Shown here piece after piece: positions 3,880 to 63,334 of a stretch of DNA of 64,000 nucleotides (position 1 is the first letter of the stretch; every line of letters begins with the position of its first letter). Position numbers and translations under genes: made by a program. Under the pieces are notes generated by a model that did not search any database, had not been told where the DNA came from, and saw only the letters and a program-made list of their open reading frames with translations. The stretch is from Candidatus Brocadiales bacterium (GTDB lineage Bacteria; Planctomycetota; Brocadiia; Brocadiales; Bathyanammoxibiaceae): assembly GCA_046758865.1 (NCBI GenBank), contig JBHIBD010000001.1, positions 7,443 through 71,442 on the forward strand, written 5' to 3'.

Positions 3880-3905
3880 AATTTGAGTCGGGTCTACAAT
3901 AGCAG

Positions 3906-3978
3906 TGAGGGCAGGAGGGATCGAACCTCCGACCTACGGCTTAAAAGGCCGTTGCTCTACCAACTGAGCTATGCCCCC
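3906..3978 (-). tRNA. tRNA-Lys(UUU): tRNA-Lys (anticodon UUU), CCA not encoded
   Basis: The reverse complement is GGGGGCATAGCTCAGTTGGTAGAGCAACGGCCTTTTAAGCCGTAGGTCGGAGGTTCGATCCCTCCTGCCCTCA. Anticodon stem is ACGGC/GCCGT with loop CTTTTAA, and the T arm is GGAGG-TTCGATC-CCTCC. Confidence 0.9.
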
Positions 3979-17458: not shown

Positions 17459-18916
17459 TTATCTATGAATGTAGCTGAGCCTTAGGCCCAGGATTCCCTT
17501 TAACAGCACAGATATAAAGCCAGTGATACCGCCTGCACGTATCCGTCGGAGGACCTCCTTCCTGTAGAAAATAGGATTCAAGTAAAAGGTGGTGCCATAT
17601 CGCATCTTAATTTTAGACATGACAAAACTATTAATTACTTTGTAATAGGCCTCGACCAACTCCTCCTGTGACATGGACTCAGTTCTCATAACAGGTGGAA
17701 AATATCCAATATAGTGAGGGGTGGTATTGTATTTCTCCCAGTTAGTTTCCATTAGCCAGCCTCTTGCCTTCGCAATTTTATAAATTTCCGTGCCTGGGAA
17801 AGGTACTATGATAGAACAGGACACTGAGTCAGCGTCCAGTTCCTTCATAAAATCAATGGTGCGGTTAACTGTCTCCCAGGTCTCACCCAGGTTACCAACC
17901 ATGAAGAATCCATGGGCTATTATGCCGGCCTCTTTTGTTATGGTAACCGCCTTTTTGGCCTGCTCCAGAGAGATGTTCTTCTTGATAAGATTCAATATCT
18001 GAGGGTCACCAGATTCAATTCCGTAGGATATTAGATGGCATCCTGCGTCTTTCATGTATCGCAGTATCTCCGGATCAACAACATTCACACGAGAAGTGCC
18101 ACGCCACGTTATATTCATCCCCGAATCTATAATCATACGACATAAGTCTAAAACATTTTTTCTCTTCAGGGTTAATGTATCATCTACAAAGTTAAAATAG
18201 CGAGCTTCGTAGTTGTCATATAACCATTTGATCTCATTAAATACGTTCTCCGGGCTTCGAACCCTTAATTTTCTCTTAAATATTATATCTGAGGCACAAA
18301 AGTTGCATTGAAACGGACAACCCCTCCCAGTAATGATTGTAAAATAGCGCGTCTCTTTCTCATATCCCGTAGGGAATTCAATATATCTACCTTTGGCGAG
18401 ATCCTTCCAATAAGGCATGGGTAATTTGTCAATATCAGGAATCAATTCCCGAGGTGGATTTATATGTATCTTTCCATCTTTTTTATATCCCAGTCCCTTT
18501 ATATTGTTAAAATCAACTGCACATGATTCTATCGCATCAACCAATTCCACCAGGGTCAATTCACCTTCGCCGATTACTACGAAATCAACATCCTTTTCTG
18601 CTAAAAATTCCATAGGTAGTGCACTTACATGAGCCCCACCCGCAACAGTAATAATTCCGCGACCAAGCGACTTTGAGATCTCACAGCATCTCTTTGCAAG
18701 GTAGTATTGAGGAGTTATAAAGGATATACCCACCATCTCTGGGTCAAAGGCCTCAATTTCTGATTTTAGTTCATCAAGGTGCACATTAATGGCAGCCATA
18801 TCCATTGCGCGCACCTTATGCCCAAGCCCCTCGAGATAAGAGGCGAGATACCCTATACCCAAGGGTGGTTCCGGACTCTCACCTACTGCTGGCGGGTGAA
18901 TGAGCAGAACTCTTAT
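17459..18916 (-). CDS. B12-binding-domain radical SAM enzyme (N-terminus extended beyond the ORF-track start)
   Basis: TGRGCPFQCNFCAS (CX3CX2C) follows an N-terminal Rossmann-like B12-binding region. The reading frame stays open upstream of the track start (IRVLLIHPPAVGESPEPPL-GIGYL) back to an ATA at 18916..18914, which lies 6 nt after AAGGAGG. Confidence 0.8.
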   Translation of the reverse strand: MRVLLIHPPAVGESPEPPLGIGYLASYLEGLGHKVRAMDMAAINVHLDELKSEIEAFDPEMVGISFITPQYYLAKRCCEISKSLGRGIITVAGGAHVSALPMEFLAEKDVDFVVIGEGELTLVELVDAIESCAVDFNNIKGLGYKKDGKIHINPPRELIPDIDKLPMPYWKDLAKGRYIEFPTGYEKETRYFTIITGRGCPFQCNFCASDIIFKRKLRVRSPENVFNEIKWLYDNYEARYFNFVDDTLTLKRKNVLDLCRMIIDSGMNITWRGTSRVNVVDPEILRYMKDAGCHLISYGIESGDPQILNLIKKNISLEQAKKAVTITKEAGIIAHGFFMVGNLGETWETVNRTIDFMKELDADSVSCSIIVPFPGTEIYKIAKARGWLMETNWEKYNTTPHYIGYFPPVMRTESMSQEELVEAYYKVINSFVMSKIKMRYGTTFYLNPIFYRKEVLRRIRAGGITGFISVLLKGILGLRLSYIHR

Positions 18917-28348: not shown

Positions 28349-29800
28349 CTATCTATCCAGTATCTTCTTATGCAAAGAGCCAAGCATGAAAAGTGACGTC
28401 TTTGCAATCCACAAGAATTCTGTAAGCGATTGCACAGAGAACAAAAGTTCAAGCATCTTGGAGGATCGGTAGTAAAAGTCTTGATAGGCCTTTTGGTAGT
28501 ATTTCGCTACATCTTCCTTGCTCAGGCTTCCCAACTCGTAGAACGCTTCACCGCTATAGAACCCCATATCTAGACCGGATGTAGTGTCAACCAAGAATCT
28601 GCCCTCTCTTTGGACCATTTCGAACAATCTAGTACCTGGAAATGGTACCGTAATCGTGAAATTTGCGATGGTGGGATTCATCTTTATGGCAAAATCTATC
28701 GTCTTTTGCATGGTCTGGGCATTATCCCCAGGAAGACCAAACATGAAAAACCCGTATACGATCATACCGCTGTCCTTCGCCAACCTGGTTGCTTCCAATA
28801 CCTTACTGAGGCTAATGCCTTTTCTACAATTCTTTAAAACCCTCTCATCGCCGGATTCGACACCAAACGCTATCTTAAAGACACCTGCCTTTTTCATTTT
28901 CTTGATAATATTCTCATCAAGAGAATCCACGCGAACGCCTAGCTGGAGATTTATGGCTAGATTGTAGTTCCGCTCGATTATCCCATCCAATATCTCCACT
29001 GTCCTTTTACGGATAAGGGAAAAATTATCGTCCAGGATATCTATCTGCTTTACATTTAATTCCTTTACTAGATAATCGATCTCGCTTAGTACGTTTTGGG
29101 GTGACCTTGCGGTAAAGTTTGATAAGAACACATCCTTACTGCAGTACACACACTGGCTGGGACAACCCCTGCTGGTAAGGATTGGGGCAACAGGCGTCTT
29201 CCTGGCCCTGCTCTTGTACAAGTTGAGGTCGGGAAGCATGTACCAGGCCGGAATGGGAAGGGAGTCTAGGTCCTTTATTCTTTTCCGCTGTTCAGTCCTT
29301 ATGATAGTTCCGTTCTCGGCATATGCTACCCCATTGATACCGCTGAAGTTATTGCACTGCCCACGCCTCAAGTTGTGCATTATCTCCAGCATGGTAAGCT
29401 CCCCCTCGCCAATTACAACAACATCTGCCTTTCCCTCCTGCAGGAATTTCTGCGGAAAGGAGGTTGGGAAGGGGCCGCCAACGATAATCTTGGGTGCCTC
29501 ATGACAGGCAGACTTGAGTTTTTCTGCAATTTCGATACATGCATTGCCAGTAAATAAATTTGCGGTAATCCCAACGGCCTTTGGCTTCGACCTCAGAATG
29601 TCCTCTACGACCATGTTAGCGTCTTTTTTCAGGACATTCGCATCAATGACACCACACCGAAACCCTTCATTCTCTAATACAGCGGCTATATAAGCTAGGC
29701 CTATGGGTGGCAATAAGGTTGTTTCACTAACCCCTTTTATATTTCCAGGGAATGGTGCGACCAAGATTATGTCCGGTTCATCCTGCAACATATAATTCAT
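28349..29800 (-). CDS. B12-binding-domain radical SAM enzyme (start moved to the internal ATG)
   Basis: TSRGCPSQCVYCSKD (CX3CX2C) after a B12-binding-like N-domain (IILVAPFPG...IGLAYIAAVLE). The ATG at 29800..29798 lies 5 nt after the zinc-ribbon ORF stop, with GGAAGTGAG upstream. Confidence 0.85.
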   Translation of the reverse strand: MNYMLQDEPDIILVAPFPGNIKGVSETTLLPPIGLAYIAAVLENEGFRCGVIDANVLKKDANMVVEDILRSKPKAVGITANLFTGNACIEIAEKLKSACHEAPKIIVGGPFPTSFPQKFLQEGKADVVVIGEGELTMLEIMHNLRRGQCNNFSGINGVAYAENGTIIRTEQRKRIKDLDSLPIPAWYMLPDLNLYKSRARKTPVAPILTSRGCPSQCVYCSKDVFLSNFTARSPQNVLSEIDYLVKELNVKQIDILDDNFSLIRKRTVEILDGIIERNYNLAINLQLGVRVDSLDENIIKKMKKAGVFKIAFGVESGDERVLKNCRKGISLSKVLEATRLAKDSGMIVYGFFMFGLPGDNAQTMQKTIDFAIKMNPTIANFTITVPFPGTRLFEMVQREGRFLVDTTSGLDMGFYSGEAFYELGSLSKEDVAKYYQKAYQDFYYRSSKMLELLFSVQSLTEFLWIAKTSLFMLGSLHKKILDR

Positions 29801-29804
29801 AAGC

Positions 29805-29990
29805 TCACTTCCAGAATTCCCAGACGTAACGCTCCTTCTTTTTGCCAAAGTCACAGTCTGAATTTGAGCACTTATACATCTCCCAACCGCTTGCGCTGGA
29901 AATAATAAGCTTACTTCCGCACTTGGGACACCTTTTAATCAGTCCCAGCCACCAGGCTAATTTTTTTACGTATGGCAGACTTTCTTTCAT
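29805..29990 (-). CDS. 61-aa zinc-ribbon mini-protein
   Basis: CPKCGS...YKCSNSDC gives two Cys pairs. ATGA start/stop overlap with the upstream dehydrase gene. The ORF ends 5 nt before the radical SAM start. Confidence 0.55.
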   Translation of the reverse strand: MKESLPYVKKLAWWLGLIKRCPKCGSKLIISSASGWEMYKCSNSDCDFGKKKERYVWEFWK

Positions 29991-35978: not shown

Positions 35979-36542
35979 TTACCCTCTAAGCCTCCAGCTC
36001 TGAAACATCTTCCTGAAGTCGCCAAGGTAGCCCTTAAAATCTTGCTGTTGTGTAACCCCTGTAAAGGAGTAGGCCTTATCTTTGACTACCGTAAGGAGCT
36101 GGATGAACTGGAGGGTATAATCTCCATCCGTGTAGGCATATATCAGCTCCTGCCATTCCGCACCGGCCTGGCTGACCCATCTTTCCAGGAAGAATTTTGT
36201 ATCTGGATACCTTGACCTTATCTGATTTTTTAGCTCCTCTGTGAGGTCTCCCAGGTCCTTTTCTGTATCAGAGACAAGGGCTATAAGGGTGGCCTGGAAC
36301 CCGGAAGGAGGGGTATTTGTGAAGACTACAAGGTCTTCTGCCTCCTGGGGGCTGATTTCCCAGCCCCCGAGGAGGGTAAATCTGAAATACTTACCCCTGT
36401 ACTCCTTTTCCTGTTTTTCTCCCTGTTGGGTCCCAGACAGATTAAATTTGAAGTACTCACTTCTGTATTTCTCTTGGTATTCCTGTGAAAAGGCCTGGAC
36501 AGGAACAAGGAATAAAACAAAGAGGAAGATGAGTTTCTTCAT
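35979..36542 (-). CDS. secreted hypothetical protein (187 aa)
   Basis: Signal peptide MKKLIFLFVLFLVPVQAFS. Internal echo KYRSEYFKFNLSG / EYRGKYFRFTLLGGW. Lies downstream of the 163-aa CarboxypepD_reg-like gene. Confidence 0.6.
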   Translation of the reverse strand: MKKLIFLFVLFLVPVQAFSQEYQEKYRSEYFKFNLSGTQQGEKQEKEYRGKYFRFTLLGGWEISPQEAEDLVVFTNTPPSGFQATLIALVSDTEKDLGDLTEELKNQIRSRYPDTKFFLERWVSQAGAEWQELIYAYTDGDYTLQFIQLLTVVKDKAYSFTGVTQQQDFKGYLGDFRKMFQSWRLRG

Positions 36543-36581
36543 AGCTGTTTTTAAAAGCCGATAGGGATATAGTTTTATGGG

Positions 36582-37073
36582 TTATGGAGATGCGACCCTA
36601 TCCTTGCCGCCGCCTCCGATGGCCCCGGTAGCAGCCGCAGCCCCTAACCCTACACCAGCAGCCGCAAGCACCCCAACTACTACATACACCCATTGACCAG
36701 GATGAGGTGACAAGAAGCCCTTGGTCTTACTCAGCTTTAGGCTCGTCTGCTTGCCTGTGGGGCTTAGCTGTACGTACTCACTGGCCTTATCCAAGCCATG
36801 AGCGGCCTGAATTCTGTAGGTCTTTCCAGCCTCAAGGCCCTTGAACTGGAAGCTCCCGTCTGGCCTAGTAGTTGTAGAGGCCGCCACTACATCAGTAGCT
36901 ACATCCACTGCCTCCACCTTTATTCCCCGCAGGGGCTTACCATCAATGCCCACCACAGTCCCGGTAATCTCTCCAGTGGTCTGGGCAAACAGGCTACTCG
37001 TTTGCCCTGCTACAGGAAACACAGCTGCTAACAGGACCAGACACCACACCAATACCTTTTTTGGTTTGAACAT
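36582..37073 (-). CDS. CarboxypepD_reg-like protein with signal peptide and Gly/Ala-rich C-terminal TM segment (paralog A, 163 aa)
   Basis: GEITGTVVGIDGKPLRGIKVEAVD...RPDGSFQFKGLEAGKTYRIQA fits the carboxypeptidase-regulatory-like fold pattern. C-terminus VYVVVGVLAAAGVGLGAAAATGAIGGGG. SD GGAG upstream. Confidence 0.75.
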   Translation of the reverse strand: MFKPKKVLVWCLVLLAAVFPVAGQTSSLFAQTTGEITGTVVGIDGKPLRGIKVEAVDVATDVVAASTTTRPDGSFQFKGLEAGKTYRIQAAHGLDKASEYVQLSPTGKQTSLKLSKTKGFLSPHPGQWVYVVVGVLAAAGVGLGAAAATGAIGGGGKDRVASP

Positions 37074-37128
37074 TTTGTGATTTCTCCTTTAGTTTGGATT
37101 TCCATTTTTTATGTGTTTATAGCGCCAA

Positions 37129-37193
37129 AGTTTACAGAAAAGAGAAAGAATGTCAAGAAAAAACTTGACATTACTACAAAAAAGGTTTATTTT
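37129..37193. promoter_or_regulatory. back-to-back divergent promoters sharing the palindrome TGTCAAG-A6-CTTGACA (37151..37170)
   Basis: Plus strand: TTGACA 37165..37170, 17 nt, TATTTT 37188..37193, reading toward wza-like 37327. Minus strand: TTGACA (complement of 37151..37156), 16 nt, TAAACT (complement of 37129..37134), reading toward 37073. Confidence 0.5.
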
Positions 37194-37237
37194 CGGGAAG
37201 ATATTGTAGTTCTATTTTTGTGCTCTTATAACACCAA

Positions 37238-37302
37238 AGTTTACATGAAGAAGAAATATTGTCAAGAAAAAACTTGATTCTACCAGAGAGAAGGTTTATT
37301 TT
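37238..37302. promoter_or_regulatory. second, slightly degenerate copy of the divergent promoter cassette
   Basis: TGTCAAG-A6-CTTGATT at 37260..37279. Plus strand: TTGATT, 17 nt, TATTTT (37297..37302). Minus strand: TTGACA, 16 nt, TAAACT (37238..37243). Confidence 0.4.
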
Positions 37303-37326
37303 TGAGAAGATGTTAGGTAGCTCAAG

Positions 37327-38424
37327 ATGTTTCTAAGAAACGGTGTTCTTACAACTCTCATAATAGTTATCTTGGCCTCAGGCTGCGTAGAGGAGTCAAA
37401 GAAGCTGTCTCCCCCCAAGGCCCTGAATAACCCCTCTAAAAATCTTTCTACCCATCCACAATGGAGATATCTGTCTTCTCAATACATGGACAGTAATTAC
37501 ACTATCGGCCCGGAGGATCTCCTAAACATAACAGTCTTCGGGGCGGAGGAGTTTAACCGGGAGGTGAGGGTAAACCATAAGGGCAGCTTTACCTTCCCCC
37601 TAATAGGTTCCGTCTATGCCGAAGGCCGCACTGTGGAACAACTGGAGCAGGCCCTAGCCAGCATGCTCTCTGAGAAATACCTCAAGGACCCCCAGGTGAG
37701 CGTCTTTGTGGAGCAGTACAAGAGTAAGAAGGTGGCCATAGTAGGCCATGTGGTAAATCCACAGATAGTAAAGCTAACAAGGAACAGGAGCACCCTCTTT
37801 GAAGTACTGGGCATGGTGGGGGGACTAGGGGAAAAGGCGGGTAAGGTAATATATGTCATCAGGCCCGCAGAGGTGGTCATGTCCACCTTGAGGGAGGCCA
37901 GGGCTGGTCAGGACCTCGGTCAAGCGTTTCTTAACGGAGGACAGGATGAAGAAATAATAGCCAGAATCAGAGATGAGGTTATACCAATAAACGTAGTTGA
38001 GCTTATGGAATATAGAAATCCCATGAGCAATATGGAGATAATGCCTGGCGATATAATAAGCGTGCCCCAAGGGGAATATTTCTTTATCCTGGGGGAGGTG
38101 AATAAGCCTGGGGCCTACGCCACGAGGGAGGGGCTCACTGCCTTGCAGGCAATCTCCTTCGGGGGCAAATTCTCCCCCATTGCCAAGTACAAAGATGTGA
38201 GGCTCCTGCGGAGACAACCTGCCGGAGAGGTTCAAATAGCCTCTCTTAATATAAAGAAGATAGCAAAAGGGGAGGAGGAGGACATCCTTATTGAGCCTGG
38301 GGACGTCCTGCTGGTAGGCAAAAGCACCCTTAAGACAGTTGCATTGCAGGCCGCACAGGTAGCAAACGTGGCCCTGAACGCCTTCACCAACGCCTATGCC
38401 TGGGATTTTATAACAAAGGATTAA
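37327..38424 (+). CDS. outer-membrane polysaccharide export protein (Wza/OPX family: Poly_export + SLBB)
   Basis: Lipoprotein-like signal (ILASGC). YTIGPEDLLNITVFG and PLIGSVYAEGRTVEQLEQALASML...DPQVSVFV fit Poly_export. GDIISVP and GDVLLV are SLBB-like. Confidence 0.85.
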   Translation: MFLRNGVLTTLIIVILASGCVEESKKLSPPKALNNPSKNLSTHPQWRYLSSQYMDSNYTIGPEDLLNITVFGAEEFNREVRVNHKGSFTFPLIGSVYAEGRTVEQLEQALASMLSEKYLKDPQVSVFVEQYKSKKVAIVGHVVNPQIVKLTRNRSTLFEVLGMVGGLGEKAGKVIYVIRPAEVVMSTLREARAGQDLGQAFLNGGQDEEIIARIRDEVIPINVVELMEYRNPMSNMEIMPGDIISVPQGEYFFILGEVNKPGAYATREGLTALQAISFGGKFSPIAKYKDVRLLRRQPAGEVQIASLNIKKIAKGEEEDILIEPGDVLLVGKSTLKTVALQAAQVANVALNAFTNAYAWDFITKD

Positions 38425-38699
38425 GGGTGGAGTGGAGATTGGCTGTATGAAGTTGAGAGTGATCTACAATATGTCTGAAATGATCATAGAAAGTGAACAA
38501 CAGAAGGTTATCGTCACATACACCGATGAACCGATGAAAGGAGGAAAGAAAGGCTCGCCAGAACTGTAACCGTTAAGATATGAATACAGTGGGTATTGTT
38601 GGACCACAGCCAAGATTTGATGCCTGATTGCCGGAGGCAAGCCTTATCATCTAAACTAGAGTCCCCAATATATCCTTACTAAGCAGTGACTCTTTTCTT

Positions 38700-40187
38700 A
38701 TGGAATCCCAAGAGAAGTCCAAAGAAGGTTATTACCCAATAGCTCCACCCCCTCCTGCGGAAGAGGAGGAGATGCACCTGCTCGACTACTTGCGGGTGGT
38801 CCTTAGGAGGCTATGGATACTGGTCACCTTCTTCTGCGTCACGGTGGTTACCGCTACCATTTACACCTTCCTCCAGACCCCCATCTACCAGGCAGTCTGC
38901 ACCATCAGCATCTTTAGGGAGGAGCCGAAGATACTCACCAAGAAAATTGAAAAGATACTGCCCTTCAGGGCCTGGGGCCAGGAGGATTTAATAAGGACCG
39001 AGTGCGCGGTAATCAAGAGCCGGGCTGTAGCCACTAGAGTCATCAAGAGACTAAACCTCGACCTCCATCCGGAATTCGCTGAAGGGACCCCAAGCATACC
39101 CGGTAGAGAAATCAACCCCCCTAAGGAGGGTTCCTCTCCATACCATCCCCTGGCAATGGCCATCCTGGGTAGATTAGAGGTAGACCCTACCCGCCTGAGC
39201 CAAATTGTTAAGATAAAATTCCAGAGCAAGTACCCCCGGCTTTCGGCCCAGGTTGCTAACGCCTTTGCTGAGGAGTACATCCAGCAAGACCTGGAAAAGC
39301 AGGCGTTCCTCTCCGGAGATGTCTCCGTAGACCTCTCTCTGCAGCTAGTGGAATACAAAGACAAGCTGGAGAAATCTGAAAAAAAGCTCTACGCCTACGC
39401 CAAGGAGCATAATGTCGTGGACCTGGGGGAAAAGGAGAACCTTTTCACGAGGAAGATAATCGCGATGGACAACCAGCTTAGCAAGGCAGTGGCCGACCGC
39501 ATAAAGGCAGAGAGCCGCTACCTCCAGTCCCAGCGGGGCAATCCAGGCTTTCTGCCTGAGGCCCTCGAATCATCGGTCATAAGCAATCTTGAGCTCCGGT
39601 ATGCCGAGGCCAACTCAGAGTATCTGCGGGAACTTGAGAGGGTGAAGCCCCAACACCCCGAGGCCATCCAGCTCAAGGCCAAGCTGGAGACCATAAACAA
39701 GGCCCTGAGGAACGAGACGCAGAAGATTTCGGCCAGCATAAGGGACGAATATCAGGAGGCGGTGGAGAGGGAGAAAAATTTCAGGGAACAACTGAATGAC
39801 CTCTTCACCCAGAAGCAGGCCCTGGAAGGTAAGCTGGTGGAGTACAGGATGCTCAAAAGGGATGTCGACACCAACGCCCAGCTTTATAACCACTTACTCA
39901 AGAGGATGAAGGAGACTGCACTTTCTTCTGAGGTAACTTCTGGGACAAGGACTGCCAACATTCAGATTTTAGAGAAGGCAGAGGTACCCAAGACACCCTA
40001 CAGGCCCAGGAAGAAGCTGAATATCCTTCTCAGCGTGATAGTGGGCCTGACCATGGGCACCGGATTATGTTTCTTTATTGAGTATCTGGACAAGAGCGTC
40101 AAAACCCAGGAAGATATTGAGAGGCGCATAGGCCTGGTCTGCCTGGGCGCTATACCCAACATCAAACATGCCCCCAGTAAGAGATAA
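38700..40187 (+). CDS. polysaccharide co-polymerase / chain-length determinant (Wzz-GumC type, kinase on a separate polypeptide)
   Basis: N-terminal TM after LLDYLRVVLRRLW, a long coiled-coil periplasmic region, and a C-terminal PRKKLNILLSVIVGLTMGTGLCFFIEYLD segment. Confidence 0.85.
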   Translation: MESQEKSKEGYYPIAPPPPAEEEEMHLLDYLRVVLRRLWILVTFFCVTVVTATIYTFLQTPIYQAVCTISIFREEPKILTKKIEKILPFRAWGQEDLIRTECAVIKSRAVATRVIKRLNLDLHPEFAEGTPSIPGREINPPKEGSSPYHPLAMAILGRLEVDPTRLSQIVKIKFQSKYPRLSAQVANAFAEEYIQQDLEKQAFLSGDVSVDLSLQLVEYKDKLEKSEKKLYAYAKEHNVVDLGEKENLFTRKIIAMDNQLSKAVADRIKAESRYLQSQRGNPGFLPEALESSVISNLELRYAEANSEYLRELERVKPQHPEAIQLKAKLETINKALRNETQKISASIRDEYQEAVEREKNFREQLNDLFTQKQALEGKLVEYRMLKRDVDTNAQLYNHLLKRMKETALSSEVTSGTRTANIQILEKAEVPKTPYRPRKKLNILLSVIVGLTMGTGLCFFIEYLDKSVKTQEDIERRIGLVCLGAIPNIKHAPSKR

Positions 40188-47309: not shown

Positions 47310-47891
47310 ATGCAATTAGACCTTAAAAATTATCTTGACCAGCTTGAAAATACTTTATTAGAAATTCAGGTAACAAATTCTGATAATGCTAATATAGATT
47401 TGATTAATGGCATCGAGGAAGTTACAAAAATAATATCTGCTCAATCGGAGAAAGGCAACAAAGTTATAATGATTGGAAATGGCGGTAGCTCATCAATCGC
47501 AAGCCACATAACAGTCGATTTATGGAAAAACGGAGGAGTGAGGGCGATTACTTTTGGTGACCCAGCATTACTTACCTGTGTGAGTAATGACTTGGGTTAT
47601 GAGTGTGTCTTTGAAAAACCTATAAGGATGTTTGGTGATGCAGGGGATGTTCTTATTGCCATAAGCAGTTCTGGAAGATCAGAGAATATTCTAAATGGGG
47701 TTAGTGCAGCGGAGAAAAGATTGTGTAAAGTTATTACGATGTCTGGATTTGAACCAGATAATCCACTTCGCTCAGCTGGAGAGATAAACTTTTATGTCCC
47801 GTCCAATTCCTATGGATATGTGGAGATAGCCCATTTAGTTCTTTGTCATTATGTTGTGGATATAATAATAAACAAGAATTCACATGGATAG
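47310..47891 (+). CDS. gmhA: SIS-domain sedoheptulose-7-phosphate isomerase (GmhA-like)
   Basis: MIGNGGSSSIASHITVDL and LIAISSSGRSENIL. 193 aa. Confidence 0.8.
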   Translation: MQLDLKNYLDQLENTLLEIQVTNSDNANIDLINGIEEVTKIISAQSEKGNKVIMIGNGGSSSIASHITVDLWKNGGVRAITFGDPALLTCVSNDLGYECVFEKPIRMFGDAGDVLIAISSSGRSENILNGVSAAEKRLCKVITMSGFEPDNPLRSAGEINFYVPSNSYGYVEIAHLVLCHYVVDIIINKNSHG

Positions 47892-48951
47892 ATTCAGAAT
47901 AGATAGTCATAAGCTAATTTACCATGTGGGCAGGGTAAATGATTGGCTTGCAGGAATACCTGTCTATCCAATCTATACTGAGATAGCGACTTCAGGTGCA
48001 TGTAACCACCGATGTGCTTACTGTGCGCTTGACTATATGGGGTATCAGCAAAGGTTCCTGGACAAAAAGGTATTGATGGACAGGCTCTCTGAAATGGCGT
48101 CTCTTGGATTAAAGAGTGTTATGTATGCGGGGGAGGGTGAACCGCTTCTGCACAAGGATATTGTTGAGATAGTCAATCACACAAAGAAGGTCGGTATTGA
48201 TGTAGCCGTAACCACGAATGGGGTGCTGTTAAAGAAAGGTTTTGTTGACTCTGCGCTCAGTAATATTGCATGGATAAAGGTGAGCATAAATGGAGCAACA
48301 AAAGGAACCTATGCAAAGATTCACAGAGCAAGCCCTGATGATTTTGACAGGGTGATGGAAAACATGTCTTATGCAGCAAGGTTGAGAGATGAGAAGGGTT
48401 ATGACTGCGTTCTTGGTGTGCAGCTAATCCTCTTGCCAGAAAACTGCCCCGAGGTGACCCTTCTAGCACAAAAGGCCAAGGATATAGGCATGGATTATTT
48501 AGTTGTGAAGCCTTATTCACAGCATCCACTGAGTAAAACAACAAAGTATAAGGATATAAAATACAGTAAGTATCTTCATTTAGCAGACAGCCTAAATGGT
48601 CTTAACGATAGAAAGTTCAGCGTAATATTCCGCATTAACACAATGAAAAAGTGGGATGAAGGTATACGCAATTATAGACACTGCTATGCCCTTCCCTTCT
48701 GGTCATACATCGATGCTGGGGGCAATGTGTGGGGGTGTAGCGCTTATCTCTCCGACGAGCGTTTTCGATATGGCAACATTTATGAGAATACATTCAAGGA
48801 GATTTGGGAGGGCAAAAAAAGGATTCAGTCAGTTCGTTGGGCAGATGGGGAACTTGATACAAATCAGTGTAGGGTAAACTGCAGGATGGACGAAGTAAAC
48901 AAATATTTATGGGAATTAAAGCACCCCCCTGAACACGTAAATTTTATCTAG
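47884..48951 (+). CDS. radical SAM enzyme (non-B12), paralog 1 (355 aa)
   Basis: SGACNHRCAYC (CX3CX2C), YAGEGEPLL, a Cys-rich C-terminal part, and the tail WELKHPPEHVNFI. Confidence 0.85.
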   Translation: MDRFRIDSHKLIYHVGRVNDWLAGIPVYPIYTEIATSGACNHRCAYCALDYMGYQQRFLDKKVLMDRLSEMASLGLKSVMYAGEGEPLLHKDIVEIVNHTKKVGIDVAVTTNGVLLKKGFVDSALSNIAWIKVSINGATKGTYAKIHRASPDDFDRVMENMSYAARLRDEKGYDCVLGVQLILLPENCPEVTLLAQKAKDIGMDYLVVKPYSQHPLSKTTKYKDIKYSKYLHLADSLNGLNDRKFSVIFRINTMKKWDEGIRNYRHCYALPFWSYIDAGGNVWGCSAYLSDERFRYGNIYENTFKEIWEGKKRIQSVRWADGELDTNQCRVNCRMDEVNKYLWELKHPPEHVNFI

Positions 48952-51173: not shown

Positions 51174-52032
51174 AAAGGTTTTACTACTCGGCTCTACCGG
51201 CAAGATGGGGATGGCATTAAGAGAGGTCTTTGAGGACGGCTATACCGTTATCGGAAAAAACACCAGGGACTTTGACGCCCTCCGGCCGGAAAGCATTCGG
51301 AATCTGGTAGAGGAAAATAGACCGGACATGGTCATAAATACCGTCGCATTCTTAGGTATAGACCCGTGTGAAAGAGAGCCCGAAAAGGCCCTTAGGCTGA
51401 ATACACTTTATCCGAGAATGCTGGCAGAACTCTCAAACGAGAAAAGGTTTTTACTTATAAACTTTAGTACGGATGCCGTCTTTGACGATGGGGCGAGGGG
51501 GTTTTATACCGAAACCGACCGCCCGAGACCATTAAATTTGTATGGGTTTACAAAACACGGAGGGGATTGTTTTGTACAAACGATTTCAAAAAATTATTAT
51601 GTATTCAGACTCTCTGTCATATTTGGAAAGACTACCAAGAACACCCAGTTTGTAGAGAAGATGTTGCAAAAGGTGTGTGAGGGCCAGAAAGTCTTAAGGG
51701 TTGCAGACGACATTGTTTCTTCCCCCAGCTACAGTGTTGACATTGCCAAAGAAGTAAGGCGACTTACAGAGGCTTCATCAGAGTTCGGGCTTTACCATAT
51801 AGCGAATGAAGGGATGGCCACTCTATACGATTTAATGAATGAAATCGTCAAAAACCTCAATCTTGATGTCGAGGTGGAAAGGGCTTCCTACAAGGACTTC
51901 CCTTATTTAGGGAGAAAGAATACATTTACACCAATCAAATCAGAAAAAGTAGCCCCCCTGCGGCCATGGAGGGAGGCTGTTAAAGAGTATTGTGACGAAA
52001 AATTGAGAGGAGAAGTAACCCTTGCCAGATAA
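51127..52032 (+). CDS. RmlD-like NAD(P)H-dependent 4-keto-sugar reductase (RmlD_sub_bind family)
   Basis: KKVLLLGSTGKMG and YGFTKHGGD (YxxxK). The real start is probably the GTG (VAKKVLLLG) or ATG (MGMAL) 35-75 nt inside the track ORF. Confidence 0.75.
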   Translation: MPVLEKLLRRPWRVAKKVLLLGSTGKMGMALREVFEDGYTVIGKNTRDFDALRPESIRNLVEENRPDMVINTVAFLGIDPCEREPEKALRLNTLYPRMLAELSNEKRFLLINFSTDAVFDDGARGFYTETDRPRPLNLYGFTKHGGDCFVQTISKNYYVFRLSVIFGKTTKNTQFVEKMLQKVCEGQKVLRVADDIVSSPSYSVDIAKEVRRLTEASSEFGLYHIANEGMATLYDLMNEIVKNLNLDVEVERASYKDFPYLGRKNTFTPIKSEKVAPLRPWREAVKEYCDEKLRGEVTLAR

Positions 52033-53107
52033 ATACATAATGAATGGTCACAAGCTCTATTGGCACCTGGATAGAGTAATGGACTGGTTAAATGGGGAAA
52101 GGGTGGCGCCCATACATATTGATGTTGGTCTAAGTAAAGGATGCAATATCAGGTGCCAGTATTGCTTTGGTGTTATACAAGGCAACTTTTATAGAAAAGG
52201 TTCAGAGGTTTACTTCCCCCGCAAACCTTTATTGAGATATTTGAAAGAGGCAGGAAAAATAGGGGTGCGGTCTATGGCATTCGTTGGGGAGGCGGAACCA
52301 CTCTTGAATCCCTATGTCTATGAGGCAATCGCAGAAGGCAAGAGGGCTGGTGTTGATATTGCACTGGGGACGAACGGGATATTATTTGACACCGGAAAGA
52401 GGGGAGAAGAGGCGTTAGAACTTCTAAGCTGGATAAGGTTTAATATCAGTGCGGCTTCGGATGAGGCCTACAGAAGAATTCATGCCAGTAAGGAGTTCTC
52501 AACGGTTGTTGAGAAGATAAAGTTTTGCGTGGATTTGAAACGTCGAAAGGGCCTGAATGCCACAATCGGCCTCCAAATGGTTCTAACTCCAGCTAATGTT
52601 GACCAGGCCGTCCCCCTGGCCAAACTGGGAAGACAGCTGGGGGTAGACTACTGTGTTATAAAACAGTGCAGTGATACGGTTGAGAATGCTCTTGGGATAT
52701 ACGGTAGACTTCAGGAATACGACAATTTTGCAGACGTTCTCCAAGAGGCTGAAGGTATAAGCTCGAATGGTTACAACGTAATAGTAAAATGGGGAAAGAT
52801 TACAAACAAAGGAGAGAGGAGTTACGACCAGTGTATCGGTGTCCCGCTTCTGTTATATTCAAGCGGCGATGGAAGGTTGTACCCGTGTGGAGCATTTTTC
52901 GACTTCAAAGAGGAAGAATATAGAATGGGGGACCTTGTAAAACAATCTTTTAAAGAAATCTTTGAGAGTGACAGATACTGGGAGGTTGTGGAAAAGGTCA
53001 AGAGAATAGATGTTCACAAAGAGTGCTATTCAAACTGCAGGACGCATTGTATAAACAAATTTCTCTGGCAATTGACTCATCCACCGGAACACGTCAATTT
53101 TGTTTAG
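52022..53107 (+). CDS. radical SAM enzyme (non-B12), paralog 2 (361 aa)
   Basis: SKGCNIRCQYC (CX3CX2C), FVGEAEPLL, and the tail WQLTHPPEHVNFV. The N-terminus GHKLYWHLDRVMDWLNG parallels SHKLIYHVGRVNDWLAG of paralog 1. Confidence 0.85.
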   Translation: MPDKYIMNGHKLYWHLDRVMDWLNGERVAPIHIDVGLSKGCNIRCQYCFGVIQGNFYRKGSEVYFPRKPLLRYLKEAGKIGVRSMAFVGEAEPLLNPYVYEAIAEGKRAGVDIALGTNGILFDTGKRGEEALELLSWIRFNISAASDEAYRRIHASKEFSTVVEKIKFCVDLKRRKGLNATIGLQMVLTPANVDQAVPLAKLGRQLGVDYCVIKQCSDTVENALGIYGRLQEYDNFADVLQEAEGISSNGYNVIVKWGKITNKGERSYDQCIGVPLLLYSSGDGRLYPCGAFFDFKEEEYRMGDLVKQSFKEIFESDRYWEVVEKVKRIDVHKECYSNCRTHCINKFLWQLTHPPEHVNFV

Positions 53108-55298: not shown

Positions 55299-56813
55299 AT
55301 GTATGATTTACTCCTAATCTCTCCACGAAACACACAGCTCGGACGTTTTAAGAGGTTTGTGCCGAGAAGTGTGCCTATTGGAATAGGCATCTTGGCCGGG
55401 TTTCTTAGAGGGAAGGGTATTTCCGCCAAGATACTTGACCAGGAGTTGACAGATATAAGTACGGAAACATTGCGGAGCTGCCTAGCGCAATGCAAAAAAC
55501 CTTGGATCGTTGGCATTAGCGTCATGACAGCGAATGTTGCCAGTGGATATCACATAGCTAAATTGGTGAAGTCTGTTAGTAAAGAAGCAGTTGTCGTATT
55601 CGGGGGCATTCACGCCACAGTAATGCCAGATGAGATTCTTCTGTCGGGTTGCGTTGACTTTGTTGTTCAAGGGGAGGCGGAATATACACTTTTGGAACTA
55701 ATCCGTCAGATTAAGGGTGGTAGAATTCAACGAGATACGCTTGAAAACATCAGTTACGTGGAAGACGGACAAATCATTTACACAAAGCCCTCAACAAAGA
55801 CGGTAGATGTAAATGAGGTTCCCATGTTTCCTTATGACATGTTTGACCCATCAAAATATAACCTTGGTTTCATCCTGACATCCAGGGGATGCCCGTTTGA
55901 TTGTATCTTTTGCAGTCAGAAGGCCATTACGAAGAGGGTTTATAGGTACGTTTCGTCAGAAAGAGTAGTCGAAGAGCTTGATTACATAATAAATGAGATG
56001 CACCAACCAAACATTACCTTTTTTGATGATTATTTTACCGGGAATAAAAAAAGGGTATTTGAGCTGTGCAACATGATTCAAGAAAGAGGGCTGCACAAAA
56101 AGGCCTCTTTTGGAGTCCAAACCCGTGGCGATAGCATTGACAAGGAACTTATGATAGCTATGAAAGCGGCTAACTTTGACAGTCTGATGTTCGGTGTCGA
56201 AACTGCTTCGGAAGATTTGATGAAGTTAATTAATAAGAATGAAACTGTCCAGGAAAATATCGATGCAATAAGATTAGCCAAGGAGATTGGTTTTACAGTA
56301 GAAGCTACATTCATCTACGGGTTTCCGACCGAGACCTTCAAGGACAGACTTGCAGCCCTCTCTCTTGCAGTGAGTATTGGGATAGACAGGGCCAGGTTTA
56401 ATAATGCCACACCGTACCCTGGCACACAAATGTATAAAATGGTTAGGGACAAGATTAATTTCGCACCTCAGTGGGTGAACTTTAGCTCTGCCGGTGCAGT
56501 TACAGCAGGTATTAGGAAGAAATACCCTCTTCCATATATTCCGGAAGGCTGCACAGAGAATGAACTTGAAGGAAGTGTTCTTTTGGCAAATCTTTTGTTT
56601 TATCTAAATCTCGTCAACTTAAAAAAACTTTTCAACCCCGGACAGAGAGGCAGTGGTAAATGGTTTGAAGTATCTAAGAATGACCTTCTATCACCAAGCG
56701 CGCTATTTGGACTATTGATACTGGGGGGAACAGTTTTATTAAGAACTCTTTATTATCTACTTTCGTGCGGCAATTGCCGCAGATTTTTCCTCAAGGGTCT
56801 CAGGGTAACGTAA
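55299..56813 (+). CDS. B12-binding-domain radical SAM enzyme
   Basis: TSRGCPFDCIFCSQ (CX3CX2C) after a B12-binding-like N-domain (LLLISPRN...PIGIGILAGFL). Confidence 0.85.
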   Translation: MYDLLLISPRNTQLGRFKRFVPRSVPIGIGILAGFLRGKGISAKILDQELTDISTETLRSCLAQCKKPWIVGISVMTANVASGYHIAKLVKSVSKEAVVVFGGIHATVMPDEILLSGCVDFVVQGEAEYTLLELIRQIKGGRIQRDTLENISYVEDGQIIYTKPSTKTVDVNEVPMFPYDMFDPSKYNLGFILTSRGCPFDCIFCSQKAITKRVYRYVSSERVVEELDYIINEMHQPNITFFDDYFTGNKKRVFELCNMIQERGLHKKASFGVQTRGDSIDKELMIAMKAANFDSLMFGVETASEDLMKLINKNETVQENIDAIRLAKEIGFTVEATFIYGFPTETFKDRLAALSLAVSIGIDRARFNNATPYPGTQMYKMVRDKINFAPQWVNFSSAGAVTAGIRKKYPLPYIPEGCTENELEGSVLLANLLFYLNLVNLKKLFNPGQRGSGKWFEVSKNDLLSPSALFGLLILGGTVLLRTLYYLLSCGNCRRFFLKGLRVT

Positions 56814-58282: not shown

Positions 58283-58311
58283 TTGACAAGTTTAGAGAAA
58301 TAACGTACATT
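58283..58311 (+). promoter_or_regulatory. candidate sigma70-like promoter for paralog B
   Basis: TTGACA 58283..58288, 17-nt spacer, TACATT 58306..58311. About 50 nt upstream of the GTG at 58364, which has a GAGG SD. Confidence 0.4.
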
Positions 58312-58363: not shown

Positions 58364-58855
58364 GTGCTGATAAAGTCAAGGCTTGTGACCTTCCTTCCTG
58401 TGTTCCTCTCTTTGGTGTTTCCCATTGCAGGCCATATGGGGGCAGTGCTGGCCCAGACACTAGGGGACATTTCTGGAACCGTGGTTGGTGTTGACGGCAG
58501 GCCTCTAATGGGGGTGGAAGCGAGACTTGTGGACATTAATACGGGAAACGCGGTAGCCTCCATAAAAACTGCCAAAGATGGTTCGTTTAGTTTTAGTGGG
58601 CTAAAGGCAGGAAATACATACAAGGTACAGGCCTTGCACGGTAAGGATGTGGATAGTGCCCTAGTAACCGTTTCATCTGGCCCCTCAAAACCTGTTGCCT
58701 TGAAGCTTAGCCAGACCAAAGGTTTCATGGCCTTGGCCGGTGCTGGTGGGGGCTTTCCCGTTTGGGGCTATGTCCTAATAGGTTTGGCCGTAGCTGGAGC
58801 AGCAGCAGGTGCCGCCGCCGCTTCTGGTCTGGTGGCGGGGGGGGCCTTGGGCTAG
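58364..58855 (+). CDS. CarboxypepD_reg-like protein with signal peptide and Gly/Ala-rich C-terminal TM segment (paralog B, 163 aa)
   Basis: GDISGTVVGVDGRPLMGVEARLVD...AKDGSFSFSGLKAGNTYKVQA. C-terminus VWGYVLIGLAVAGAAAGAAAASGLVAGGALG. Collinear with 36582..37073. Confidence 0.75.
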   Translation: MLIKSRLVTFLPVFLSLVFPIAGHMGAVLAQTLGDISGTVVGVDGRPLMGVEARLVDINTGNAVASIKTAKDGSFSFSGLKAGNTYKVQALHGKDVDSALVTVSSGPSKPVALKLSQTKGFMALAGAGGGFPVWGYVLIGLAVAGAAAGAAAASGLVAGGALG

Positions 58856-59113
58856 CTTATCCTTTGAGCCCATAGCATTCTCCTACGACAGTTCTGGATG
58901 GTCAGGCTTTGACGAGATTTATTTTGTCCGTTTTATCAGTAACATTATCCCTTTTGCAGAGTGAGACTGCCAATTCAGGTGCCTTTAAGGCTGAAACTTT
59001 CACTACAAAACTGTCGGGGAATTGGGACAGTAGTCCTCAGGAAAACAGATTTTCAGCATCTGGCAATTTAGATGAGTAATTCTTTCCTATCTACTTCCAA
59101 TGGAGGGTTTTTT

Positions 59114-61156
59114 ATGCAAGTCCGATTACTCCTTGGTTTAGTTTTACTTGTAGCTTTTTACTGTTTTAGCCTAGTTGGATGTCAGTCTACTGCCCTACAG
59201 CGAAAAGATACCCACTACGCAAAGCTTAGTTCATTACCGACTGACGTAAAATTCCCAGAAAATCTCAAAAGCAAGATACGCTACGACACGGATAATGAGC
59301 GCCTGGTTCTTAAGGGGGTTATGACTGAAGATGAAAGAGACAAATTGCTGAAGTTGTCCAAAAACGTTCCGTATACGGCAGCTATCGGAACACTTTACCA
59401 TAAACAGCAGAATAATACAAAAAGAAAACAACGGCCCTCCAGTGAAACTGATACTTCTAAAAGCATGACAGCACTAAAGGATACAACGAAGGAAGCTACA
59501 AAGGATATCCAAGAGAAGGAAATTTTGAAAGAACTTGCTGAAGAATCGCCAAAAGGACATAAAAAACCTCGTGCGAGTGCTACAGGCCTGGAAGAGCAAA
59601 AAGACATTGATCCGGTGGAAAAATGGGTTTCAGAGCCTCCAACCATCGAGGAGGGAAGCAAGGATTTCATAGAGGTTGCCGCCGCGCAAATAGTGCGTAA
59701 GTTTGAAGAGAGCTTTCCACCAACAAAGGGAAAGGACTTCACCGTCCTAGTGAAATCATTTACGACTCTTGACGGAAATCTGACTATGCTTTCGAGCCTT
59801 CTGGCAGAGGAACTTTTTACGCAACTCTCAAATAGCCCATGGGTGGGCGGTAGCCTGCGAATCTGTTGTAATCCCATAGATGGTGGCCTAGCACCTAATC
59901 GACTAGACGGGATAATAACGGGAAGCTTGGCAAAAATAGGAAAGGAAATAAAGATTAATGCTAGACTTGTCTCAGCAGATACTCACATATTAATATCCTC
60001 AATCTCAACAAGAATACCCGCGTCCGAAACCGCTGTGAGCCTTTTAGGGGCCGAAATAACCCCCAAAAGGCCCATAGAAAGTGAAGACCTGAATACGAGG
60101 CTGGACTCTCTGGCCTGGCAGGTGGAACAGATCTTGTACGACCTCCAGGGAGATAAGGAAGTTCCGCAAAGGCTATGTGTCCTGGATTTCCGCACGCTGG
60201 GAGGCAAGAAGAATTTCCTGGGGAAATTCTTGGCTGAAGAATGTAAACTAAGGCTTTCTAAGAATAAATTATGGAAGTTTGTTCCCACCGCTAGAGTTGA
60301 AAAACTTCTTGGCAGAGAGATCTCATCCATCTCAGATTTGACCATTACGGACCTTACAGAAGGACTGGCTGGAGGGTTGGGTATAGAGGCCATTATCGAA
60401 GGAACGGTCACAGACCTAGGCAACGGCGTTAAGGTGAACGTAAAGGTAGGTGATATAATGGAGGGTTTGACCTGGGGTACTGCTTCTGTGGATATACTAA
60501 GGGATAGAAGCGTCGAATTCCTTTTAAATAAAGACAATGGGCGAGTTCTAACCTCTGGCAGTTCCGTTAATGCGGGTGTGGTCAAGGAGGGTTTGAAGAC
60601 CGCTTACTCTGGGCAGAAAAGTGAGGTTTCTGTAGTAAACAGACTTGGAGAGGACTTTTTCCTGAGGGAAGATTTTTCCGACCCCGAGGTAGTACACCGC
60701 CTGCTCGAATGGGGTAATGATTTAATCATTACCAGTGAGGGAGAGAAGCGTTTCTTGGCATCACAAGAACCCAGATTCGTAAATGTGGGGAAGAAAATAG
60801 ATTTTCCAACAAACTTCACCCTGGGGTTTGAAGTGAAAGGAAGCAGCAAATATTGGAATACGTTGAAGTTTGCCGATGTTTCTGGTAATGAGTTTGGCTT
60901 AGATTTCCAACTCAACGAAGGCAACTGTTACATAGTGCTCCCCGGACCAAAGAGTGTAAGAGTAAGAGTAGACACCAACTCGGCTAATAAATTCAAGCTG
61001 GTCAGAAAGAATGGCTTTTATGAGGTATACGTAAATGATACCCTGGCATTAGCAGGGCCTTATTCCAAGTATACCCAGTTCAAGAGCTTCACTATAACAG
61101 CTCGATTAGACCAGATTCGTTTTACAGGTTTCCTGGGGAAGGTAATTAAGGGATAA
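59114..61156 (+). CDS. large lipoprotein (680 aa from the internal ATG), function unknown
   Basis: GGAGG lies 7 nt before the ATG at 59114. Lipobox LVGC. Lys/Glu-rich linker. Two copies of a hydrophobic-x-x-F..L.G...L...LAEE...LS motif. The beta-rich C-terminal domain looks like a lectin/LamG-type jelly roll. Confidence 0.7.
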   Translation: MQVRLLLGLVLLVAFYCFSLVGCQSTALQRKDTHYAKLSSLPTDVKFPENLKSKIRYDTDNERLVLKGVMTEDERDKLLKLSKNVPYTAAIGTLYHKQQNNTKRKQRPSSETDTSKSMTALKDTTKEATKDIQEKEILKELAEESPKGHKKPRASATGLEEQKDIDPVEKWVSEPPTIEEGSKDFIEVAAAQIVRKFEESFPPTKGKDFTVLVKSFTTLDGNLTMLSSLLAEELFTQLSNSPWVGGSLRICCNPIDGGLAPNRLDGIITGSLAKIGKEIKINARLVSADTHILISSISTRIPASETAVSLLGAEITPKRPIESEDLNTRLDSLAWQVEQILYDLQGDKEVPQRLCVLDFRTLGGKKNFLGKFLAEECKLRLSKNKLWKFVPTARVEKLLGREISSISDLTITDLTEGLAGGLGIEAIIEGTVTDLGNGVKVNVKVGDIMEGLTWGTASVDILRDRSVEFLLNKDNGRVLTSGSSVNAGVVKEGLKTAYSGQKSEVSVVNRLGEDFFLREDFSDPEVVHRLLEWGNDLIITSEGEKRFLASQEPRFVNVGKKIDFPTNFTLGFEVKGSSKYWNTLKFADVSGNEFGLDFQLNEGNCYIVLPGPKSVRVRVDTNSANKFKLVRKNGFYEVYVNDTLALAGPYSKYTQFKSFTITARLDQIRFTGFLGKVIKG

Positions 61157-62761: not shown

Positions 62762-63334
62762 TTATTTTTTCTCCTTTGGTCTGGCAGCTGGATATTTTGC
62801 GTAGAGTTTTTCCAGTTTATTCTCGAGTTTGGCTATCTTCTCTTTCATACTAGCCGCCGCCTTGGCGGCGGAACTGGCCTTTTTAGCAAGTTCCTTATTT
62901 TGTTCCAGTAAGAGCATGTGCAACCGTTTATTTTCATGGACGGTATCGTAGTATTCCAAACCCTGGCGCACTACCTTCTCAAGATGGTACCTATCCCACG
63001 GTTTAAGTATAAATTTAAATACGTCCACATTGTTTATTGCATCGGCCGCGGCCCGGATGTCTGCATAGCCAGTTATTGCTATCCTTACGGCATCGGGCGC
63101 AATCTCTTTGGTCTTCTCTAAGAATCCAACACCTGACATCACCGGCATCCTAATGTCCGAGATTATCAGCTCTACATTCTCATTGCGCAGGATATCCAGC
63201 CCTTCCTGGCCACTTCTCGCTGTAAGTACATTATAACCAAGCCTTGTAAAGGTCCTCTCCAATGAACCCAATACCTGTTCATCATCATCCACTATCATTA
63301 TTGTGTACTTTTTTTGCTTCATCGGCCGCAGCAC
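62762..63334 (-). CDS. response regulator: receiver domain plus coiled-coil tail, no recognisable output domain
   Basis: IMIVDDDEQVL...LIISDIRMPVMSG...AITGYAD...KPW, then a Lys/Ala-rich helical tail. Confidence 0.85.
   Translation of the reverse strand: MLRPMKQKKYTIMIVDDDEQVLGSLERTFTRLGYNVLTARSGQEGLDILRNENVELIISDIRMPVMSGVGFLEKTKEIAPDAVRIAITGYADIRAAADAINNVDVFKFILKPWDRYHLEKVVRQGLEYYDTVHENKRLHMLLLEQNKELAKKASSAAKAAASMKEKIAKLENKLEKLYAKYPAARPKEKK

Follow-up and report, generated by a model that had tools for sequence, protein, structure and literature searches.

A diverged tandem duplication of a putative back-to-back promoter unit in a polysaccharide gene cluster of an uncultured Candidatus Brocadiales bacterium

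Results

Genes flanking the divergent intergenic region

The DNA analyzed in this study, hereafter called the window, is a 64-kb stretch of a metagenome-assembled genome of an uncultured Candidatus Brocadiales bacterium, an anammox planctomycete. A divergent intergenic region of 253 bp with a GC content of 30% is located at positions 37074–37326 of the window, between the two arms of a polysaccharide cluster. The first gene of the left arm (36582–37073, minus strand) encodes a secreted protein of 163 amino acids with a CarboxypepD_reg domain, and an AAGGAG motif is found 8 nt upstream of its ATG. The first gene of the right arm (37327–38424, plus strand) encodes a Wza-type polysaccharide export lipoprotein, with Poly_export and SLBB domains and a lipoprotein signal, and is followed in order by genes for Wzz/GumC, a tyrosine-kinase ATPase, and a Wzy_C polymerase. 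In the left arm, genes for two small secreted proteins come first and precede those for glycosyltransferases and a methyltransferase, while sugar-nucleotide enzymes, B12-radical-SAM and SPASM enzymes, and a flippase are encoded further along both arms. As seen in the ORF list, all large ORFs between 498 and 37073 are on the minus strand, and all those between 37327 and 62454 are on the plus strand. Because the two arms are fully opposite in strand on either side of it, the 253-bp gap is a single divergent control region at the center of a polysaccharide cluster of approximately 60 kb.

Tandem duplication in the gap

A repeat search identified one direct-repeat family in the gap, consisting of two copies (37106–37205 and 37215–37314) whose starts are 109 bp apart and which share 78% ungapped identity. 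The best 100-nt self-match of the 253-bp gap scored 78 at an offset of 109, as compared with a mean of 44.2 (sd 2.0) and a maximum of 52 in 300 dinucleotide-preserving shuffles of the same gap. On the basis of the repeat search and the shuffle test, the gap contains two adjacent head-to-tail units of 109 bp, designated U1 (37106–37214) and U2 (37215–37323), with a similarity far above chance. A gapped MAFFT alignment over the full 109 bp showed 80 of 109 positions to be identical; the divergence between U1 and U2 thus lies at 22–27%, which is similar to that of orthologous intergenic DNA. The blocks TTATA.C.CCAAAG and GAAGAT, which lie outside the promoter-type hexamers described below, are also conserved between the two units. 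Tandem Repeats Finder reported nothing at the gap, and no further copy of the 109-bp unit was found in the 64-kb window. The silence of Tandem Repeats Finder, together with the presence of only one family of two copies, indicates an old duplication, limited to two diverged copies, rather than a repeat array.

The same two copies were present in two independent Logan assemblies, L001 (SRR29324601) and L002 (SRR29324603), giving three assemblies in all, and the duplication is therefore not an assembly artefact. Between L002 and the window there are just two differences, a T-run indel and one SNP, both outside the core elements. An earlier note on this DNA had described a 109-bp tandem duplication lying between the 163-aa gene and the wza operon. 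Our data confirmed the duplication, and the ORF list and domain content agreed with its placement; the position given for it, 37117–37320, was correct as to location, with limits slightly too narrow for a repeat that spans 37106–37323.

Predicted promoters and the palindrome

We compared the gap with a sigma-70-type consensus, namely a TTGACA-like -35 box and a TAnnnT -10 box separated by 16–18 bp. Each unit is laid out as a leftward -10 box (TAAACT), a 16-bp spacer, a leftward TTGACA, the shared G-A6-C, a rightward TTGACA, a 17-bp spacer, and a rightward -10 box (TATTTT), with the rightward -35 box of U2 decayed to TTGATT. Four candidate promoters were predicted from this layout, and a start was assigned to each by placing it 7 nt after the -10 box. 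On the minus strand, P_L1 (37129–37156, TTGACA-16-TAAACT) adjoins the 163-aa gene, with a predicted start at about 37122 and a leader of 49 nt, and the more distal P_L2 (37238–37265, TTGACA-16-TAAACT) has a predicted start at about 37231 and a leader of 158 nt. On the plus strand, P_R1 (37165–37193, TTGACA-17-TATTTT) is distal to wza, with a predicted start at about 37200 and a leader of 127 nt, and P_R2 (37274–37302, TTGATT-17-TATTTT) adjoins wza, with a predicted start at about 37309 and a leader of only 18 nt. Three of these sites match the consensus at 10 of 12 positions, and P_R2 matches at 8 of 12, which is below the scan threshold.

The consensus scan called four sites in a 1.6-kb region, three of them inside the gap, versus 1.8 ± 1.3 in shuffles. 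When U1 and U2 were compared, the predicted elements and the shared core were identical at 30 of 32 positions, versus 48 of 68 in the rest of the unit (one-sided Fisher p = 0.006); the same test restricted to the four hexamers gave p = 0.05. Throughout the window, seven sites combined a perfect TTGACA with a TAnnnT -10 box (at least 4/6) at 16–18 bp. Six of the seven were intergenic, intergenic DNA making up 14% of the window, and three of these six lay outside the gap. Judged from sequence, a sigma-70-type promoter is plausible for the host genome. No mapped promoter consensus for anammox bacteria, Brocadiales, or Planctomycetes was found in the literature.

The -35 boxes at 37151–37156 (minus strand) and 37165–37170 (plus strand) face the 163-aa gene and wza, respectively, and so form a back-to-back divergent pair. 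The two predicted divergent starts of a unit are separated by about 78 bp, and its two -10 boxes by 54 bp. Across the junction of the two units, P_R1 and P_L2 point toward each other, with predicted starts approximately 31 bp apart (37200 and 37231), and their transcripts would overlap by about 32 nt.

The two -35 hexamers of U1, lying back to back with 8 bp between them and a common A6/T6 tract at the center, make up palindrome 1 (37149–37172), which reads AATGTCAAG-A6-CTTGACATT. The 20-bp palindrome TGTCAAGAAAAAACTTGACA is exact at 37151–37170, and the arms in U1 reach 9 nt (AATGTCAAG and CTTGACATT). Its counterpart in U2, palindrome 2 (37260–37279, TGTCAAGAAAAAACTTGATT), reads TGTCAAG-A6-CTTGATT, with a degraded right half and its symmetry lost. 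No other match to the palindrome within 3 mismatches was found in the 64 kb, where 0.01 was expected. Since an inverted repeat necessarily results when two TTGACA hexamers stand back to back at this distance, the palindrome is a geometric by-product of the two -35 hexamers.

The earlier note had proposed that the palindrome is built from -35 hexamers on opposite strands, exact in copy 1 and with CTTGATT as the right half of copy 2, and that each unit has correctly spaced -10 boxes and is built as a divergent promoter pair. Both proposals held as regards the layout, the spacers being 16 and 17 bp. Its description of two nested divergent pairs overlooked the convergent inner pair formed by P_R1 and P_L2.

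The unit in related loci

A protein search found no relatives of Wza and Wzz above 52–56% identity. Close relatives of the 163-aa protein were found on short contigs, with amino acid identities of 83% (P0026, locus L128) and 72% (P0027, locus L129), and the coding DNA of these two loci is 85–94% identical to that of the window. Upstream of the orthologous CarboxypepD_reg gene, both loci carry (A)GTTCAGA(G/A)-T6-7-CTTGACA-AATCC, followed by TG(n)TAA at the spacing seen in the window. The presence of T6-7-CTTGACA at this position in both loci indicates that the leftward -35 box and the T tract are conserved. The leftward -10 candidates, TAAAGA in L128 and TAAGCG in L129, were not called by the scan and lack the usually essential last T, so that the exact leftward -10 box and start site are uncertain.

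In L129, the CarboxypepD_reg gene is divergent from wzz, the leader of which is 88% identical to window positions 38470–38699. Upstream of this leader, what is left of the wza start reads GTGTCTCTAAGAAGC (against ATGTTTCTAAGAAAC in the window), suggesting that wza was deleted in the L129 lineage. A rightward candidate promoter, A6-CTTGACT-16-TAACAT, is located before the wza remnant, at a position that matches P_R2. The leftward and rightward promoters of L129 are 260 bp apart, and each has retained its half-palindrome. The intervening segment of 252 bp is flanked by the direct repeat AGAAAAAA, and L128 has the same right-hand junction, while the left junction of L129 is known from one 1.9-kb contig. 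The segment showed no terminal inverted repeats by BLAST and had no other copies in the loci compared. When it is removed from the sequence, the product is GGATTTGTCAAGAAAAAACTTGACTTT, which contains the 19-mer core of U1, TGTCAAGAAAAAACTTGAC, between flanks that are about 61% identical to U1/U2. The arms conserved between the window and L129 are GTCAAG/CTTGAC only, 6 nt each, and the core is the best-conserved stretch.

Because excision of the L129 segment rebuilds the exact core, the core appears to be older than the duplication. The simplest history starts from a single back-to-back unit, which received an insertion with an 8-bp target duplication in L128/L129 and underwent the 109-bp duplication in the lineage of the window. 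A two-copy ancestor whose inner promoters decayed within the L129 segment was considered and rejected, as the segment has no similarity to them above that of shuffles; the A tracts of L129 could nevertheless trace back to two ancestral copies with a later replacement of the inner part. Under either history, the sequences suggest that L128 and L129 retain one promoter per direction and that the half-palindromes survive apart.

Two more distant wza loci were also compared. L003 has T7-CTTGACT-18-TAAAAT at a distance from the start codon similar to that of P_R2, and L127 has T7-CTTGCAA-16-TAGAAT. The -35 box with its T/A tract is thus conserved in L128, L129, L003, and L127, and the rightward -10 box is conserved as TAACAT, TAAAAT, and TAGAAT in L129, L003, and L127, respectively. 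A structured leader RNA upstream of wzz was also considered and was rejected, since the conservation there is that of neighboring coding DNA and the folding z-score is -0.5. Scans of JGI metagenomes with a unit-specific pattern and with a 26-mer of the wzz leader gave no matches.

Occurrence of the 18-mer in other phyla

A scan of a genome collection found the exact 18-mer TGTCAAGAAAAAACTTGA in at least 120 loci from unrelated phyla, with no Brocadiales among the matches listed. In a non-redundant subset of 95 of these listed loci from other phyla, a TAnnnT box was present at 16–18 bp on the left in 31 and on the right in 23, and on both sides in 10. At control spacings, the same 95 loci gave about 10 (left) and 7 (right), corresponding to an approximately three-fold enrichment. 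The enrichment of -10 boxes at promoter spacing suggests that the palindrome is a recurrent way of making promoters, for which a lineage-specific regulator would not be needed.

Discussion

Interpretation of the duplicated unit

We propose, with a probability of roughly 0.58, that the gap contains a lineage-specific, diverged tandem duplication (2 × 109 bp) of a compact back-to-back sigma-70-type promoter unit. In each unit, two TTGACA hexamers would point apart across the shared 8-bp G-A6-C, each with a TAnnnT box 16–17 bp further out, and the A6/T6 tract would probably act as an AT-rich upstream element for both directions. The ancestral state would have been one unit in a gap of about 120–145 bp, from which the CarboxypepD_reg gene and the glycosyltransferase arm were read leftward and wza-wzz-kinase-wzy rightward. 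Duplication of such a unit would yield four candidate promoters: an outer pair, P_L1 and P_R2, each adjacent to its gene, and an inner pair, P_R1 and P_L2, whose members face each other. The 163-aa gene would be read mainly from P_L1. As the -35 box of P_R2 is weakened, wza would probably be read mainly from P_R1, with its 127-nt leader. The duplication, the geometry of its elements, the conserved core, and the single-copy candidate promoters of the relatives are read directly from the DNA, while the firing of these sites, their relative strengths, and any interference among them are predictions from it. P_L2 and P_R1 should interfere with each other, and interference between these inner promoters is as likely as additive expression.

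Alternative explanations

One alternative holds that a single promoter per direction matters, the outer or the inner partner adding little, and that the second copy decays slowly and neutrally as a relic, with no regulatory effect other than longer leaders. Two -35 positions have already been lost in P_R2, the relatives manage with one promoter per direction, the two units have diverged as much as orthologous intergenic DNA, and convergent inner promoters should obstruct each other, all as expected of a relic. Despite the 22% divergence, however, only one of the four -35 boxes has decayed and none of the four -10 boxes has, and conservation is significantly higher in the predicted elements than in the remainder of the unit; we therefore regard a neutral relic as possible but doubtful. 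At the other extreme, the duplication may not be neutral, with the convergent inner pair inside the divergent outer pair coupling the two 30-kb arms as a reciprocal or bistable switch between the export machinery and the glycan-building genes. Such coupling would operate through transcriptional interference or through a putative dimeric factor on the palindromes 109 bp apart, and it seems to us improbable.

A different possibility is that a dimeric transcription factor governs both arms by binding the palindromes as its operators, which would act either alone or in overlap with promoters; two operators 109 bp apart would permit cooperative binding or looping. The perfect inverted repeat with 9-nt arms in U1, its central position in the divergent control region, and the core as the stretch best conserved in L129 are what an operator would predict, and the cluster does encode a response regulator (a receiver-domain protein) and a histidine kinase. 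These are its only signalling genes, and they are located at the right edge, 25 kb from the gap. Against an operator, the two -35 hexamers fully account for the palindrome, the conserved arms shrink to 6 nt, U2 is asymmetric, and the 64 kb hold no further site. No recognisable DNA-binding or helix-turn-helix domain was found among the approximately 50 flanking proteins scanned, and no published operator of the sequence TGTCAAG/CTTGACA was found in the literature. The identical 18-mer, moreover, occurs across unrelated phyla together with promoter-spaced -10 boxes. The orthologous loci do not keep the inverted repeat as a symmetric unit: its halves lie 260 bp apart in L129, whose right-hand junction is shared by L128, and both halves were kept. 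This persistence of separated half-palindromes argues against an obligatory dimeric-regulator site. The palindrome had earlier been called an obvious dimeric-regulator site, a view that the split halves in L129, the asymmetric U2, and the lack of a nearby regulator gene do not bear out. A factor could bind over the -35 boxes, but operators as the explanation of the palindromes are unlikely.

Palindrome 1 may alternatively act in RNA, where the P_L2 transcript would fold as AAUGUCAAG-U6-CUUGACAUU followed by CUUUCUCUUUUCU, forming a weak intrinsic terminator or attenuator; the outcome would be a short RNA of about 80 nt from P_L2, or tuned read-through into the left arm. A terminator-like site was indeed called on the minus strand at 37172–37149, and the hairpin of palindrome 1 has a folding energy of -10.7 kcal/mol on either strand (z = -4.7). 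Such a hairpin is, however, unavoidable from the palindrome itself, and the stem preceding the U-rich tail on the minus strand has 9 bp with only 3 G-C pairs. Terminator-like sites occur at chance frequency (2 found, 2.3 expected), palindrome 2 folds no better than shuffles (-4.6 kcal/mol), and none of the Rfam 15 covariance models matched at the gathering score in the window or at E ≤ 1 in 37000–38750. We consider an attenuator very improbable.

We likewise give little credence to the idea that the AT-rich repeat is not a promoter region at all, but a replication origin, a mobile-element scar, a small gene, or a small RNA. The cumulative GC skew reaches its minimum exactly at the gap, where gene orientation also switches, as would suit a chromosomal replication origin. 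This candidate was rejected: no DnaA box lies within 1 kb, the nearest boxes with 1 mismatch being more than 1 kb away, and no DnaA-box cluster is present. Because of this, and because the skew changes sign once more over the minus-strand genes at 62.7–64 kb and so tracks gene orientation, we attribute the skew minimum to gene orientation rather than to an origin of replication. The Logan contigs carry a predicted 54-aa ORF that runs through the repeat, but a period of 109 bp, which is not divisible by 3, places the two copies in different frames of this ORF. A small ORF in the gap was rejected on this ground, and a known RNA for lack of an Rfam match. The absence of any other copy of the unit in the window also speaks against a non-promoter element.

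Significance and comparison with known systems

The preferred reading, a duplicated bidirectional promoter unit, bears on a group of organisms in which promoters are essentially unmapped, and anammox bacteria are without a genetic system. A conserved and compact core, consisting of a T/A tract and CTTGACA, is found at the head of a 60-kb extracellular-polysaccharide cluster and can reasonably be put forward as a candidate strong native promoter. Clusters of this kind matter for how granules and biofilms form in wastewater reactors. For promoter evolution, the locus also amounts to a small natural experiment: one lineage has duplicated the unit and in another a 252-bp segment divides it, which indicates that the palindrome need not stay in one piece.

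Tandem promoters (P1/P2, for example in rRNA operons) and tandem duplications of promoter regions place promoters of the same direction in series in front of one operon. The gap resembles them in having two same-direction promoters in series, with copies that arose by local duplication, and differs from ordinary tandem promoters in that the duplicated unit is bidirectional, which creates a convergent inner pair with predicted starts 31 bp apart. In TetR- or LysR-type systems, palindromic operators of dimeric regulators are located in divergent intergenic regions. As in those systems, an inverted repeat is centered between divergent genes and overlaps promoter elements; unlike them, the gap has no adjacent regulator gene, its symmetry is not conserved in relatives, and its sequence is that of the -35 consensus.

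Symmetry-driven bidirectional promoters have overlapping -10 elements and starts 7–25 bp apart, with a mode of 18 bp (Warman et al., bioRxiv 10.1101/2020.01.31.928960). The unit described here shares with this class a divergent transcription that would follow from the symmetry of core elements, with no dedicated regulator required. Its symmetry lies at the -35 elements instead, and with predicted starts about 78 bp apart and -10 boxes 54 bp apart it falls outside the class. The closest description is offered by the classical back-to-back divergent sigma-70 promoters, such as those of E. coli ilvY/ilvC (cited in PMC4469952). In both cases, promoters on opposite strands abut at their upstream ends, their transcripts do not overlap within a pair, and a short shared control region serves two operons. 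Unlike in the ilvY/ilvC class, the -35 hexamers in the gap are only 8 bp apart, share one A6/T6 tract, and form a perfect palindrome; furthermore, the whole pair is present twice, and the promoters here are predicted from sequence. The locus is otherwise ordinary gene-control DNA that leaves current understanding unchallenged, and its sole unusual feature is that the whole bidirectional unit has been duplicated, giving a convergent inner pair.

Polymorphism in the predicted promoter region and rearrangement in relatives

The sequence of the divergent gap between the 163-aa CarboxypepD_reg gene and wza was compared across three assemblies, and only two polymorphisms were observed, a T-run difference and a G/A difference. 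The former, T6 versus T7, falls on the left boundary of unit 1, the first of the two 109-bp copies (37105-37110; L002, a Logan assembly with the same two-copy gap, versus the window). The latter is a G to A change at 37312 (L002 versus the window), with which unit 2 reads GAAGATATT, as unit 1 does. Neither falls within a predicted -35 or -10 box.

In L129 (340-737), a relative's locus with an orthologue of the 163-aa gene, the palindrome halves are split by a 252-bp segment of higher G+C, with AGAAAAAA direct repeats on both sides and inverted GTCAYYCTGAG...CGAAG motifs inside; its right-hand junction is common to L128, another such locus. The wza gene is deleted in L129, where the first ~8 codons (GTGTCTCTAAGAAGC...) remain, joined to the wzz leader. 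This non-coding leader of ~230 nt, located 5' of wzz/GumC between wza and wzz (38470-38699), shares 88% identity with L129 85-330 (minus strand), a level of conservation similar to that of the neighbouring coding DNA (86-91%). The two leaders differ by indels of 8, 8, 11, and 3 nt, which rule out a long ORF. No Rfam match was found for the leader, and its folding energy was no more favourable than that of shuffles (z = -0.5).

The Candidatus Poribacteria MAG CAXXUA01 also has the 18-mer of the palindrome core, embedded (...gtgctaagtgcttgTGTCAAGAAAAAACTTGAtttttggtttaaaacatgagatactcattatacc...) in a dispersed repeat that is longer than 100 bp and is present in at least 15 near-identical copies (L006, L013, L018, L021, L029, L034, L046, L047, L064, L068, L071, L089, L090, L101, and L124). 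Related Poribacteria carry a variant of this repeat followed by TATAAT-like boxes, and the repeat may be a mobile element bearing a promoter.

Organization of the surrounding cluster

The cumulative GC skew of the window (1-64000) formed a clean V with its minimum near 36000-37000, at the divergent gap. The genes are all directed away from this minimum, no DnaA-box cluster was found there, and the skew turns back along the minus-strand genes at 62.7-64 kb. The minimum is thus most likely an effect of gene orientation, not a replication origin.

Where the cluster ends on the left (498-1088, 3802-3978), a phage-type integrase gene adjoins tRNA-Glu and tRNA-Lys, which may mark the edge of a genomic island bearing the polysaccharide locus. 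The window has no signalling genes other than those for a receiver-domain protein (62762-63334) and a histidine-kinase ATPase fragment (63344-63985), both at the right edge of the cluster on the minus strand, and neither showed a link to the promoter region.

The window also encodes a second 163-aa CarboxypepD_reg paralogue (58364-58855), which shares 46% identity with that of 36582-37073 and comes with a promoter-like site of its own (58283-58311), consisting of an A-tract and TTGACA-17-TACATT. A FlgO-like protein of 694 aa is encoded 3' of the paralogue (59072-61156), and this order at 58-61 kb matches the order 5' of wza in two other wza loci, L004 (Scalindua) and L125.

The cluster further contains three B12-binding radical-SAM enzymes (17459-18862, 28349-29854, and 55299-56813), two SPASM radical-SAM enzymes (47884-48951 and 52022-53107), and additional radical-SAM genes. 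Glycan clusters do not usually hold so many, which hints at unusual sugar modification.
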